32,000 nt of DNA from Candidatus Odinarchaeota archaeon (GTDB lineage: Archaea; Asgardarchaeota; Hermodarchaeia; Hermodarchaeales; Hermodarchaeaceae): NCBI GenBank assembly GCA_048885185.1, contig JBHLQC010000004.1:1-32000 (forward strand). The letters are read 5' to 3'. A program made the translations under genes and the position numbers. The stretch's first letter is position 1. Each line of letters opens with the position of its first letter. The notes below the pieces were generated by a model. That model was given only the letters and a program-made list of their open reading frames with translations. It did not search any database and was not told the DNA's origin. Below, piece by piece: positions 2,373-28,707 of this stretch.

Positions 2373-2411
2373 TGGAGCCTCGGACGGGGATTGAACCCGC
2401 GACCAGCAGCT
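2373..2411 (-). other. Orphan tRNA 3' half (nt 38-76 with CCA), with no 5' half nearby
   Basis: The reverse strand reads A GCTGC TGGTC GCGGG TTCAATC CCCGT CCGAGGC T CCA. That is a 3' anticodon-stem strand, 5-nt variable loop, full T arm, 3' acceptor strand, discriminator and CCA. No GCCTCGG acceptor, D arm or GCAGC strand occurs in the 100 nt upstream on that strand. Confidence 0.6.
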
Positions 2412-2637: not shown

Positions 2638-3285
2638 ATGAGAACCGTTGACATTCTTACTGTTTCACGGATCCTGAACCAAGCTCAAGTATGGCATAAA
2701 ATTCAAAATGATTTTATCTGCACCAAAAAAACACGAATTAAAATCCCGAAACTTTGTGAAAAAGTTGCATACTTTGCAGGTGTTGTTGCAGGTGATGGTA
2801 ATATTAACAAATGCAAACGAAAGAAAGGCGGTTACTATTATCGAGTAAATGTTGTGGGTCGAAGAAAATTCATGGAAAAGTTGTCATTATTAGTCAAAGA
2901 CCTCTTTCATCATCATCCTCGGGTTCTACGAGATAAAAGAAAGGAAAACTGTTACGCAATTAATATCAACTGTGCAGCAGTATACTTCTTTTTCATCAAA
3001 TTAGGTTTTCAATCAGGAAAGAAAAATAAAATTAGAGTTCCTTCGTTGATTGCGGAAGATGCTTCACTGTTCAAGTATTACATGTACGGATTAATTGATA
3101 CTGATGGATATATTGACAAAAAGAGAGTGCAGCTAAAACAGCGTGATGAGAATTTTCTCAAAGAACTTGTGCGTCTCTTGAAGAAACATTTCGATATTAT
3201 ATCAACTACCCCAAAGGTCAATTACACTAAGGGGAAACCCTACTATTACATTCGATTCCCAATCGGTAAATTAACTGAGGCATAG
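2638..3285 (+). CDS. Free-standing double-motif LAGLIDADG homing-endonuclease-like protein
   Basis: 215-aa ORF with two LAGLIDADG-type motifs, YFAGVVAGDGNI and YMYGLIDTDGYI. It is lysine-rich and visibly more AT-rich than its neighbours, and sits between tRNA-Thr and tRNA-Pro. Confidence 0.8.
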   Translation: MRTVDILTVSRILNQAQVWHKIQNDFICTKKTRIKIPKLCEKVAYFAGVVAGDGNINKCKRKKGGYYYRVNVVGRRKFMEKLSLLVKDLFHHHPRVLRDKRKENCYAININCAAVYFFFIKLGFQSGKKNKIRVPSLIAEDASLFKYYMYGLIDTDGYIDKKRVQLKQRDENFLKELVRLLKKHFDIISTTPKVNYTKGKPYYYIRFPIGKLTEA

Positions 3286-3351: not shown

Positions 3352-3428
3352 GGGCCGGTAGTCTAGTTCGGTATGATGCGAGGTTTGGGACCTCGTGGTC
3401 CCGAGTTCAAATCTCGGCCGGCCCACCA
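3352..3428 (+). tRNA. tRNA-Pro (anticodon UGG), intron-less, CCA encoded
   Basis: Acceptor GGGCCGG/CCGGCCC, anticodon arm CGAGG-TTTGGGA-CCTCG, T arm CCGAG-TTCAAAT-CTCGG, discriminator A, CCA. Length 77 nt. Confidence 0.92.
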
Positions 3429-3456
3429 CGTTTTCTTACCCAAGGTTTCACAACAC

Positions 3457-3463
3457 TTTTATA
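3457..3463 (+). promoter_or_regulatory. TATA-box-like element upstream of the 5S rRNA
   Basis: TTTTATA lies about 22-26 nt upstream of the first nucleotides of 5S helix I, which is archaeal TATA-to-start spacing. Confidence 0.5.
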
Positions 3464-3481
3464 GCGGGGGCGATTGGTGCT

Positions 3482-3606
3482 GGGTGGCGCGGTCATAGAA
3501 GCTGGGTCACACCCGGTCTCGTCAGATCCCGGAAGTTAAGCCGGTTTCGTCGCCGTGAGTACTGATATCCGAGAGGCGTCGGGAAAATGGTGAACTGCGC
3601 CACTTC
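3482..3606 (+). rRNA. 5S ribosomal RNA, not linked to 16S/23S in this window
   Basis: Terminal helix GTGGCGC (3484-3490) pairs with GCGCCAC (3597-3603). The internal string CACACCCGGTCTCGTCAGATCCCGGAAGTTAAGCC matches the conserved archaeal 5S core. Ends are approximate to a few nt. Confidence 0.9.
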
Positions 3607-7866: not shown

Positions 7867-8286
7867 ATGTGTCCACATCAAAAAAACCCCCAATCTAAAA
7901 AAGAAAGATTAGAGGAGCGCTTTGAGAAGGGTATTCGTCTATTACTTGAACTCTCCAAAGAAGGTGTTCCAATAGTAGTGGAGGGTATCAAGGATATCAC
8001 GGCATTACGTGGATTGGGTTTAACAGGACCCATTCATGCATTAGCAGGCCATAATATTGTCAGTTTGGCTGATGAATTAGCAGAGGCCCAACGTTTGTTG
8101 ATATTATTTGATTTTGATAGAAGAGGAGGCCAATTAACTCGTCACTTGATTAACCAATTAGAAGGACGAGGAGTCACATTGCTTCACAATGAACGGCACC
8201 AACTAAGGCGAGCTTTTAGTTGGCGTGTTCGGGTTATTGAAGGCTTAAAAGAGATGGATAATTGTTCGAAAGGCACAAAGTTTTAA
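7867..8286 (+). CDS. Small stand-alone Toprim-domain protein (COG1658-like)
   Basis: 139 aa. The pattern IVVEGIKD...LILFDFDRRGG fits a Toprim acidic motif (E ... DxD). Confidence 0.7.
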   Translation: MCPHQKNPQSKKERLEERFEKGIRLLLELSKEGVPIVVEGIKDITALRGLGLTGPIHALAGHNIVSLADELAEAQRLLILFDFDRRGGQLTRHLINQLEGRGVTLLHNERHQLRRAFSWRVRVIEGLKEMDNCSKGTKF

Positions 8287-8429: not shown

Positions 8430-9756
8430 ATGGGAGCAAATGAAGAAAGTACTGGTACTACTAAATATTGTATTCGTGGAAAAATCGAAATAGATGGAGT
8501 AGTTGAGACCCCCGATGTCGTAGGCGCGCTCTTTGGTCAAACAGAGGGCCTACACTTCATATCACAGATGTGAAGGGGTAATCGGTGAAGATTTGGATCT
8601 TAGAGAGTTACAACAATCGGGGCGAATTGGTCGAATAAAAGTAGAACTGAATTCAGAGGGCGGTAAATCACAAGGCACCATTACTATTCCCTGTAGTCTT
8701 GATCGGACTGAAACCGCAGTTCTCGCAGCTGCAATGGAAACTGTAGATCGAGTTGGTCCTTGCGCAGCGAAAATTACCCTGCAAAAACTAGAAGACGTTC
8801 GCGAAGAAAAACGAAAACGAATCATTGAACGAGCCGTGGACCTTCTACGAGATTGGGAAGGAGAAGTATCACCGGATTCGCAGGAAATGACAGACACTGT
8901 CATGAGAGAAACACGTACGGCAGGGATTGTGAAACTAGGGAAGGAAAAACTTCCCGCTGGACCAGATGCAGAAACTTCTAACACAATCATTGTTGTTGAA
9001 GGTCGTGCAGATGTGTTATCTTTGCTTCGTTCAGGTGTGAAAAATGCTGTTGCAGTAGAAGGTACTTCGATTCCAAAATCAATTGTTGATTTGATCAAAT
9101 CAAAAACTGTGATTGCCTTCCTTGACGGAGACCGGGGAGGAGATTTAATTCTCAGAGAGCTTTCTCAACTAGCAAAAGTAGACTACGTTGCGAGAGCACC
9201 AACAGGAAGAGAAGTAGAGGAACTAACTCACAAGGAAATCACAAAAGCCCTTCGAAACAAAATTCCAGCAGAACAGGTGCTGAGAAAGCCCATCAGAAAA
9301 GCCAAAACCTTGACCAAAGTCACTCCAAAAACGAAACGGCGAGGGCGGCGACCCACGACACAGAAACCGAATGAAACCCGTCAAAGGACAACACGTTCTA
9401 CAAAGCGGGACACACCCCGAACTAAGGAAGCCCCAAAGGACAAGAAGAAACCGAAAGATCTCGGAATTCCTAAAGCTGTTCTTGATTCATCTCAGAAAAT
9501 TCAACAGACAATGATGGCTTCAATTCTTGATAAAGATTTGAAACAACTTAAGGAGACACATGTCGGAGAGATAGCCAACGAGTTGCAGAAACAAAAAAAT
9601 GCACAAGTCCTCATCTTAGATGGAGTTGTAACACAACGGCTTATCGATATTGCCGAAGAACGTGGCATCGAACTAATCATTGGAGTCCGCATTGGAAATA
9701 TCGTCAAGAAGCCAGCAAAAATGCGCATTCACACATTCGATGAATTGCAGCAGTAA
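8430..9756 (+). CDS. dnaG: Archaeal DnaG primase/exosome-associated Toprim protein, coding sequence interrupted by a 28-nt insert: join(8430..8553,8582..9756)
   Basis: Exon 1 from ATG 8430 encodes [41 protein letters not shown]. Left unspliced, this frame stops at TGA 8571-8573. The +1 frame continues [22 protein letters not shown]... with the Toprim core [14 protein letters not shown] and FLDGDRGGD. The joined length of 1299 nt is divisible by three. Confidence 0.8.
8554..8581 (+). other. Candidate BHB-type intron within the dnaG mRNA (28 nt)
   Basis: Hairpin 8555-8562/8568-8575, 3-nt bulges 8552-8554 and 8580-8582, and a 4-bp central helix 8548-8551/8576-8579. Excision restores the reading frame and the GLLGEDLDL consensus. 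Confidence 0.6.
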
Positions 9757-11232: not shown

Positions 11233-11616
11233 TTAGGTTTTCCGTTTATCGATTGAATGGCGTGTTTTAACGGCTACTCCTCTTGTGAGTTCAAGCATTT
11301 CTTGAGGACTTAATTGAGCCACTCCAACAGCAAGTAATTCATCCTTACTATCCACTACGAGTACTTCATCACCTGCACGAAGTTGGGGATCCACTTCTTC
11401 CACATGCTTTGCAAAAAGACTGCGACCTTCAGCAATAAAATGGGCGACCTCTTGATGAACTACTACGCGGAGTCGTGGATATTTAACCGCAGCATGCAAG
11501 CATTTAGCACCCCAGATTGTCAGAACAATACGCCCATCAGTTGCGCGAATTGTCGCAAGGACTTTGGAAGCCAATAGTACTCTTCGAAGACGCCCAGTTC
11601 GTTTGGACACTTCCAC
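11233..11616 (-). CDS. PUA-domain RNA-binding protein (ArcTGT C2/PUA-like)
   Basis: 127 aa. C-terminal LRAGDEVLVVDSKDELLAVGVAQLSPQEMLELTRGVAVKTRH is a typical PUA domain. Confidence 0.65.
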   Translation of the reverse strand: MEVSKRTGRLRRVLLASKVLATIRATDGRIVLTIWGAKCLHAAVKYPRLRVVVHQEVAHFIAEGRSLFAKHVEEVDPQLRAGDEVLVVDSKDELLAVGVAQLSPQEMLELTRGVAVKTRHSIDKRKT

Positions 11617-14872: not shown

Positions 14873-14981
14873 GGGCCGATGGTCTAGCTATCTGTTTGGA
14901 AATTCTTCAGACAGACTAGAAGGCTATGATACCGCGCTTACACCGCGGTGGTCGGGGGTTCGAGTCCCTCTCGGCCCACCA
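14873..14981 (+). tRNA. tRNA-Val (anticodon UAC) with a 32-nt BHB intron in the D loop; exons 14873..14889 and 14922..14981
   Basis: Acceptor GGGCCGA/TCGGCCC, anticodon arm CCGCG-CTTACAC-CGCGG, T arm GGGGG-TTCGAGT-CCCTC, A73, CCA. Removing 14890-14921 gives the D arm GTCT-AGCTGGCTA-TGAT and a 77-nt mature tRNA. Confidence 0.88.
14890..14921 (+). other. BHB intron of tRNA-Val (between nt 17 and 18)
   Basis: Central helix CTAG 14884-14887 / CTAG 14916-14919, bulges CTA 14888-14890 and AAG 14920-14922, inner helix TCTGT 14891-14895 / ACAGA 14911-14915, and an outer helix of 3 bp (14881-14883/14923-14925). Confidence 0.75.
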
Positions 14982-15056
14982 TAGAACTTTTTTCTATGAT
15001 AACCATTCAAAAGGTTGCTCGTATTGTCCACAAACCGCCTCGTGGAGTAGAGTAGC

Positions 15057-26903: not shown

Positions 26904-27473
26904 ATGGCAGGAATCCGCTGCTTTATTGCTGTTGAGGTTGATGATCCCATAGTAACTAGACACATTCGAAAAAAACAACAAGATCTTCAATCAAGTAGAG
27001 CCAAGCTAAAACTAGTTGAAGAAAAAAACCTCCACTTTACTTTACACTTTCTTGGAAATGTTGACGAGGGACGAATCCAGGACCTTACTGAATTACTTGA
27101 AAAGGTGGAAGGTGATTCGTTTAAAGTTGAACTGGTTGGTCTCGGTTGCTTTCGACCTCAGCGACCTCGAGTGATATGGATTGGATGTACATTGGGTGCA
27201 GACCAACTCATTCACCATCAGCAGTTCCTTGGAAAACAACTTAGGACACATGGATTCCCATCTGAGAAGCGAAAATATACACCTCATCTTACGATTGCTA
27301 GAGTCCGGAGTGGGGAAAACCGTTCCCAATTAATGAAGCTTGTTGATGAACACAAAAACTATGAATTCGGTAGGTTTCGAGTCAAAGCAATCAAGTTGAA
27401 GAAAAGCACACTTACACCGAAAGGTCCTATTTATGAAGACTTGGCTGTGGGAGAACTAAACGAGGTTGGGTAA
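26904..27473 (+). CDS. RNA 2',3'-cyclic phosphodiesterase / 2'-5' RNA ligase (LigT/ThpR, 2H family)
   Basis: Two HxT/S motifs, HFTLHFLG and PHLTIARV, at 2H-family spacing. Confidence 0.85.
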   Translation: MAGIRCFIAVEVDDPIVTRHIRKKQQDLQSSRAKLKLVEEKNLHFTLHFLGNVDEGRIQDLTELLEKVEGDSFKVELVGLGCFRPQRPRVIWIGCTLGADQLIHHQQFLGKQLRTHGFPSEKRKYTPHLTIARVRSGENRSQLMKLVDEHKNYEFGRFRVKAIKLKKSTLTPKGPIYEDLAVGELNEVG

Positions 27474-28512: not shown

Positions 28513-28572
28513 GAAAAGGAATTAAAAGGGCTTGAGTGTTAAGAGACCAGCCCGTGGGCCGGTGGTCTAGAT

Positions 28573-28600
28573 CCCAACTGGTGACTACCACAGGCTAGAA
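28573..28600 (+). other. BHB intron 1 of tRNA-Pro(GGG), D loop, 28 nt
   Basis: Central helix CTAG 28567-28570 / CTAG 28595-28598, bulges ATC 28571-28573 and AAT 28599-28601, inner CC/GG plus hairpin TGGT-GACT-ACCA. The outer helix is weak, with one G-U pair. Confidence 0.7.
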
Positions 28601-28623
28601 TGGTATGATGCCTGCCTGGGGCG

Positions 28624-28654
28624 CGGTTTACTTGAATTGAAGTAATCCCCCTAT
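28624..28654 (+). other. BHB intron 2 of tRNA-Pro(GGG), between nt 39 and 40, 31 nt
   Basis: Inner helix 28625-28633/28640-28648, bulge CGC 28622-28624, central helix GGGG 28618-28621 / CCCT 28649-28652, bulge ATC 28653-28655, outer helix 28613-28617/28656-28660. Confidence 0.8.
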
Positions 28655-28707
28655 CAGGTGATCCCGCGTTCAAATCGCGGCCGGCCCACCACTTTTCTAT
28701 TCTTAGA

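Follow-up and report, generated by a model that had tools for sequence, protein, structure and literature searches.

A probable tRNA-type intron in the dnaG coding sequence of an Asgard archaeal clade

How can an archaeon make full-length DnaG from a gene whose reading frame breaks close to its start? The question is raised by the dnaG locus of Candidatus Odinarchaeota archaeon, which we analysed within a stretch of 32,000 nucleotides (nt), hereafter called the window (contig JBHLQC010000004.1 of assembly GCA_048885185.1, positions 1-32,000, forward strand). In this locus, the beginning and the remainder of the protein are encoded in two different frames, on either side of a 28-nt insert. Comparison with related genomes, the predicted fold of the insert and the tRNA introns of the same window all point to a relaxed bulge-helix-bulge (BHB) intron, located in the coding sequence of a Hermodarchaeota-type Asgard clade. 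We give this reading a probability of about 0.85.

The broken dnaG frame in the window and in related genomes

A sequence-only reading made earlier on this DNA had described a frame break in dnaG, and all its coordinates are correct. A first open reading frame (ORF), 8430..8573, starts at ATG 8430, with GTG 8421 also in frame, and ends at TGA 8571-8573. Past the predicted junction, its frame continues into the insert as HFISQM before reaching this TGA, and the stop codon thus falls within the 28 nt. A second ORF, 8533..9756, lies in the +1 frame relative to the first one and holds the remaining archaeal DnaG from 8584 on. The gene can be divided as follows:

8430..8553, + strand: dnaG exon 1, 41 codons plus 1 nt, starting at the ATG and ending at base 1 of the junction Leu codon; conserved protein, a separate 47-aa ORF in public records (aa, amino acids)
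8554..8581, + strand: predicted 28-nt BHB-type intron ACTTCATATCACAGATGTGAAGGGGTAA, in phase 1; its removal restores the frame and GLLGE, and the same site is occupied in 26 loci
8582..9756, + strand: dnaG exon 2, starting with TC of the junction Leu codon and ending with the stop; read in the +1 frame, with a profile match of the spliced product

Excising 8554..8581 fuses GGC CTA C to TC GGT GAA and yields a 432-aa protein. The predicted spliced junction, FGQTEGLLGEDLDL, is the near-universal archaeal consensus, G-L-L or G-L-F being found there in all 120 insert-free archaeal loci among the matches listed. Among all 28-nt deletions that restore the frame, the deletion of 8554..8581 is the only one to give G-L-L-G-E, which bears out the cut proposed in the sequence-only reading. 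Against the NCBIfam DnaG equivalog NF003108, the 432-aa product aligns to the whole profile (positions 1-419 of 419) and scores 527 bits, the cut-off being 300. In the spliced mRNA, CAAACAGAGGGCCTAC would be followed directly by TCGGTGAAGATTTGG; in a circularized intron, ...GAAGGGGTAA would be joined to ACTTCATATC...

Public annotations reflect the break. Public collections contain the 407-aa and 47-aa products exactly as the window encodes them, under adjacent accessions (MDO8123337.1 and MDO8123338.1), as “DNA primase DnaG” and “hypothetical protein” of Candidatus Hermodarchaeota. A truncated DnaG is what gene callers had been expected to annotate. All the public records examined split dnaG in this manner, and in the truncated call the conserved N-terminal domain has lost its first 41 residues.

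The same truncation was seen in the closest relatives when proteins were searched with the spliced product. The 53 closest clusters (P0001-P0053, 64-95% identity) cover 63-94% of the query and correspond to N-terminally truncated gene calls, some of which translate the insert in the exon-2 frame, for instance MAKQRAYTSHHRCEGVFGEDL and MAKQRAYTSHHRCEGVFGEDLDL. At about 50% identity, homologues labelled Lokiarchaeota, Thorarchaeota, Jordarchaeia, Freyarchaeota, Baldrarchaeia and Atabeyarchaeia cover 97-100% of the query and read uninterrupted as ...FGQTEGLLGxELDLRELQ...

Insert-bearing loci were collected from the window, at least three species genomes, twelve metagenome contigs found with a clade-specific alignment, and ten loci reached via exact-protein look-ups. 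In total, 26 loci (20 distinct sequences, with DnaG identity down to 61-64%) carry an insert at the same phase-1 site. The insert was seen in none of the 120 loci from across Archaea among the matches listed. Within the clade, the comparison with related genomes, which had been suggested as a way to find intron-less alleles, gave neither an insert-free dnaG nor any sign of loss among the recovered loci and close homologues. The members of the clade are labelled inconsistently (Thorarchaeota, Odinarchaeota, Hodarchaeota, Promethearchaeota), yet they form one DnaG group.

The length of the insert varies, being mostly 28 nt, 29 nt in one locus (L003) and 31 nt in another (L161), and none of these lengths is divisible by three. 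When the insert is excised by the bulge rule, with each cut placed behind the second bulge nucleotide, every insert-bearing locus whose gene is wholly assembled has a single uninterrupted ORF of 414-433 aa; the frame and GLLGE are restored also in the 29-nt and 31-nt variants. A same-phase insert present throughout a deep Asgard clade, varied in length and always restoring both frame and consensus when excised supports the splicing that the sequence-only reading had proposed. In addition, a covariance model of the intron gave a single hit in each dnaG locus and no further one in the window or in 19 related loci, so that there is no sign of a repeated or mobile intron family. One locus, L083 (SMTZ1_10036733), matches the window at the intron and has an altered exon 1, which looks frameshifted or internally deleted; either the assembly or damage to the allele may account for this.

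Codon variation bears on both exons. Thirteen codons of exon 1 show synonymous-only variation across relatives, and so do 29 of the first 40 codons of exon 2, one more being invariant. This synonymous-only variation means that both exons are translated, and both are under strong purifying selection. On the other hand, no distinct sequence differs in the motif codons GGC and CTA, and C(AC), which includes the first base of the junction codon, is likewise invariant, whereas neighbouring codons vary synonymously; the motif bases are therefore held by something besides coding.

Predicted fold of the insert and calibration on tRNA introns

The insert had been described from the sequence as a BHB in relaxed form. 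RNAfold applied to 8536-8595 (-15.7 kcal/mol, z = -2.3) agrees with this description, giving a 4-bp helix (8548-8551/8576-8579), a 3-nt bulge (8552-8554), a 9-bp hairpin (8555-8563/8567-8575) and a loose 3' side. The elements of the predicted motif are:

8548..8551, + strand: 5' strand GCCU of the central helix H, exonic, pairing with 8576-8579; codons GGC and CTA invariant
8552..8554, + strand: 5' three-nt bulge ACA, with the predicted cut at 8553/8554; unpaired in the window and in all seven variant folds
8555..8575, + strand: inner hairpin h', 8555-8563 with 8567-8575, 9 bp including one G-U, with a 3-nt loop; supported by RNAfold and alignment, the loop varying freely
8576..8579, + strand: 3' strand GGGU of the central helix H, intronic; in the alignment, 8579 is U, C or A opposite G8548
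8580..8582, + strand: 3' bulge or internal-loop nucleotides AAU, with the predicted cut at 8581/8582; middle base A, U or G among relatives

The central helix, the 5' 3-nt bulge and the inner helix expected of archaeal BHB introns are all present in the minimum-energy folds of the window and of seven divergent variants (7/7). The predicted fold, with its loose 3' side, fits the relaxed HBh' class rather than the canonical hBHBh' one. The relaxed HBh' form is known for non-canonical archaeal introns (PMC5829648).

Pairing was measured on a MAFFT alignment of 17 distinct sequences. Standard pairs make up 97.5% of the pair cells, as compared to 37-54% with slid partners, and 0 of 500 shuffles reach 97.5%. 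Changes are mostly one-sided and preserve pairing: U-G becomes C-G or U-A, and G-U becomes G-C opposite G8548, where position 8579 forms ten G-C pairs, six G-U pairs and one mismatch. At pair 8561-8569, A-U is replaced by G-C in L003 and L165, which are counted, and also in L161 and L170, which stand outside the count. The inner stem of the 31-nt L161 was misaligned by MAFFT; its compensatory pair was therefore excluded from the count and taken by eye and from the fold. Overall, covariation in the alignment gives modest support for the structure. The hairpin loop is unconstrained across relatives.

Three tRNA introns of the window provide a calibration. The tRNA-Val(TAC) gene (about 14873-14985, + strand) contains a 32-nt D-loop intron at 14890..14921, with a full hBHBh' motif made of helix CTAG/CTAG and bulges CTA and AAG. 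The tRNA-Pro(GGG) gene (28556..28691, + strand) contains two non-canonical introns, one of 28 nt in the D-loop (28573..28600) and one of 31 nt at about position 39/40 (28624..28654). The inner helix of the first of these has just 2 bp, corresponding to a relaxed motif. Both intron-bearing tRNAs were missed by ARAGORN with intron search and by Rfam, and were located by manual inspection and pattern searches. With cuts behind nucleotide two of each bulge, the genes give canonical tRNA-Val(TAC) and tRNA-Pro(GGG), both then recognised by ARAGORN, in keeping with what had been claimed for this cut rule. Because the two tRNAs need three excisions, the organism must process relaxed motifs at unusual positions and in the size class of the dnaG insert, which speaks indirectly for the enzyme activity.

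More generally, non-canonical tRNA introns of TACK and Asgard archaea (hBHBh' or HBh', outside 37/38) resemble the dnaG insert in geometry, cut rule and size class (28, 31 and 32 nt in the window), and the same enzyme is presumed to act on both. However, the dnaG substrate would be an mRNA, without a tRNA body for recognition, and its outer helix is reduced to about one pair.

Proposed splicing, rival explanations and known mRNA introns

In the mechanism that we propose, the dnaG pre-mRNA would bear a 28-nt relaxed HBh'-type BHB intron at 8554..8581. EndA, the RNA-splicing endonuclease of archaea, would cut between the second and third nucleotides of each bulge, after 8553 and after 8581. The enzyme would be of the heteromeric (alpha-beta)2 type with an L1 loop, as in Asgard archaea; this type is able to cleave relaxed motifs (PMC5829648). 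An RtcB-type RNA ligase would join the exons, and the mature mRNA, GGC CUA C followed by UC GGU GAA at the junction, would encode the full-length 432-aa DnaG with an intact N-terminal domain. We infer, rather than observe, the cleavage and ligation themselves, the enzymes involved and the constitutive or regulated character of splicing. As a separate observation, the window contains an ORF of the LigT / 2'-5' RNA ligase (2H phosphoesterase) family at 26904-27473 (+ strand). LigT / 2H phosphoesterase enzymes act on 2',3'-cyclic phosphate RNA ends, such as those left by the splicing endonuclease.

Several observations weigh against this reading. The 3' half of the motif is weak: the AAU bulge is closed by the single pair G8547-C8583, and the minimum-energy fold prefers a 2x2 internal loop over a clean bulge closed by this pair. 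The seven divergent variants are equally loose at the 3' site (2x2 or 1x1 internal loop). Double changes are found at one pair only (8561-8569), covariation being thin because the sequences are very similar. The 29-nt variant L003 (JABXGV010000209.1) comes from a single metagenome-assembled genome and may reflect an indel error. Neither endA nor rtcB is present in the 32-kb window. No junction-spanning spliced DnaG of the clade was found in the protein collection by exact look-up of five spliced proteins, a result that is uninformative on splicing; an N-terminal junction query of the same collection matched only other archaea, at 72% identity or less. Finally, an in-house scanner for relaxed BHB motifs with an inner helix of at least 8 bp found 9 motifs of similar quality in the window and a mean of 7.5 per 32 kb in shuffled sequence. 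As such motifs are about equally frequent in shuffled sequence, their presence alone is not evidence; what makes the dnaG motif significant is that it falls exactly at the frame break and is conserved in relatives. Use of the scanner as a discovery tool for more mRNA introns was dropped, since shuffled sequence scores about the same.

Could full-length DnaG be made from the unspliced mRNA by translational recoding, through a +1 shift inside the insert or a ribosomal hop over it? Bypass elements such as those of T4 gene 60 and Magnusiomyces mitochondria (byp) are hairpin-forming inserts of 27-55 nt that break the frame while the protein is retained. The dnaG insert is likewise short, hairpin-forming and frame-breaking, it contains a stable hairpin and an in-frame stop codon, and GGC 8547-8549 and GGU 8584-8586 might act as matched take-off and landing codons. 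This GGC to GGY pair is the sole matched one, however, and a hop between its codons would remove the LLG residues conserved in 120 insert-free homologues, whereas bypass elements rely on matched codons that yield the conserved protein. In addition, no stop codon directly follows the take-off codon, GGY is preceded by different codons among loci (AUC, UUC, GUC), and the fold and cuts of the insert fit EndA. A +1 shift meets other obstacles. No slippery run is present. In L165, no +1 path exists, the overlap being -7 nt (the exon-1 TAG occupies intron nt 9-11, and the exon-2-frame stop ends at nt 15); in eight other loci only 2 nt are open to a shift, and L003 (29 nt, single assembly) would require a shift in the opposite direction. 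The open overlap and the conserved site and direction of programmed +1 frameshifts are therefore not found across these loci, and we consider recoding highly improbable.

The 47-aa peptide of exon 1 and an N-terminally truncated DnaG could also be made separately, the two cooperating or the peptide being dispensable. Gene callers and public annotations give exactly these two products, and the window offers TTG 8533 in the exon-2 frame. Yet no start codon is conserved in exon 2: counting along the conserved sequence, ATG, GTG or TTG first appears at codon 84 (L003), 86 (L092) or 21 (L167, L170), and in eight loci the first possible start is 3 codons downstream. The exon-2 codons that would be skipped are conserved at the protein level with synonymous variation, and a split gene would leave unexplained both the retention of the BHB fold and a length that is never a multiple of three. 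It is thus a very unlikely account. We see about as slim a chance for removal of the insert by another route, whether a different nuclease-ligase pair, an unknown editing activity or self-cleavage. The weak 3' motif half and the fact that endA was not seen in the window speak for such a route. Against it, the 5' half is a textbook helix-bulge-helix, the predicted cuts match exactly the EndA rule that works on the three window tRNA introns of the same size class, and 28 nt is too short for any known ribozyme intron. As for a dead gene or an artefact, due to a disabling insertion or to misassembly, the frame is indeed broken and all data come from metagenome assemblies. Nevertheless, many independent samples and assemblers yielded the same insert, 26 loci in all, with conserved synteny; strong purifying selection acts on both exons, and no insert-free allele was seen within the clade; the likelihood of this explanation is next to nil.

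Splicing by EndA has a close precedent in coding sequence. The cbf5 intron of Desulfurococcales and Sulfolobales is 16-44 bp long, adopts an unconventional BHB cut between bulge residues two and three, lies between the first and second codon bases (phase 1) and is processed by a heteromeric endonuclease (PMC2738675). The dnaG insert resembles this intron (Watanabe 2002, Yoshinari 2006, Yokobori 2009) in its shortness (28-31 nt here), relaxed BHB, cut rule and phase. Both are too short for an ORF, conserved in a clade and absent outside it, and borne by host lineages with a broad-specificity heteromeric EndA. The two differ in gene and in lineage, Crenarchaeota for cbf5 and the Hermodarchaeota-type Asgard lineage for dnaG. 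Moreover, cbf5 splicing has complementary DNA and in vitro support, whereas dnaG splicing is predicted from sequence, and the cbf5 intron shows both gain and loss, whereas no loss of the dnaG insert is seen within its clade. By its sequence features, the dnaG insert is a short, ORF-less intron candidate in coding sequence of the cbf5 type and, because the host gene differs, an analogue of the cbf5 intron rather than a homologue.

Another mRNA substrate of the archaeal splicing endonuclease is HVO_1309 of Haloferax volcanii, where a BHB intron lies in the 5' untranslated region and its removal matters for expression (PMC7714728). Unlike the dnaG insert, this intron lies in an untranslated leader and interrupts no frame, and it has a euryarchaeal host, a homodimeric enzyme and a canonical motif. 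The 2020 Haloferax study gives cbf5 as the only other mRNA example (PMC7714728), and a structural paper of 2025 limits its citations on mRNA splicing to the cbf5 work. The earlier statement that cbf5 is essentially the sole precedent in coding sequence agrees with these sources (PMC2738675, PMC7714728). No prior report of a dnaG intron or of Asgard mRNA introns was found in the searchable literature, which excludes most subscription journals.

If the splicing reading is true, dnaG would be the second archaeal protein-coding sequence known to need tRNA-type splicing, after cbf5. Being independent of cbf5, this case would mean that the machinery of tRNA splicing has been put to use on mRNA at least twice, here for a different essential gene and in Asgard archaea. 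Asgard archaea are the closest prokaryotic relatives of eukaryotes. The insert is also a clean marker for the clade and provides a defined 28-nt substrate for tests of Asgard EndA specificity.

An extension of this reading is that the dnaG intron serves as a regulatory switch, possibly one of several mRNA introns in Hermodarchaeota, with EndA/RtcB splicing setting the amount of full-length DnaG. DnaG is both a subunit of the RNA exosome and a primase, and through such a switch the expression of a factor of RNA decay and replication would depend on tRNA-splicing capacity. It would also be an archaeal counterpart, in the lineage closest to eukaryotes, of the unconventional mRNA splicing of eukaryotic HAC1/XBP1. 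In the latter, cleavage by IRE1 and ligation by Trl1 or RtcB are independent of the spliceosome and regulated by stress. Like the proposed dnaG splicing, it is catalysed by proteins, removes from an mRNA a short intron that shifts the frame and is flanked by stem-loops, and uses tRNA-splicing ligases. The nuclease is however IRE1 rather than the tRNA endonuclease, and stress regulation belongs to HAC1/XBP1. We regard the switch as unlikely.

Neighbouring genes and other elements in the window

dnaG sits in a conserved gene neighbourhood, in the order class I Trp/Tyr tRNA synthetase (- strand), small Toprim protein, dnaG, 94-aa protein, ATP synthase subunit D, NAC (- strand). The conserved small Toprim protein, of about 139 aa (7867-8286, + strand), lies directly upstream of dnaG and has the same position in all clade members examined.

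Elsewhere in the window, three elements were observed. A 215-aa LAGLIDADG_3 homing-endonuclease ORF (2638-3285, + strand) lies between tRNA-Thr(TGT) (2516-2590) and tRNA-Pro(TGG)/5S rRNA (3352-3603), and may be free-standing or the remnant of a mobile intron. Next to tRNA-Thr, an element resembling a tRNA 3' half (GGTCGCGGGTTCAATCCCCGTCCGAGGCTCCA; 2373..2410, - strand), made up of a T-arm, the 3' strand of the acceptor stem and CCA, repeats the 3' end of this tRNA in inverted and diverged form. The window was searched for a partner 5' half, and none was found; the element may have been left by an integration event or may belong to a split tRNA. Finally, a stand-alone 127-aa ORF (11233-11616, - strand) contains only the C2 and PUA domains of archaeosine tRNA-guanine transglycosylase (ArcTGT). 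The next gene is a proteasome-activating ATPase, and the fact that the catalytic part is not adjacent suggests that this ORF is part of a split ArcTGT.

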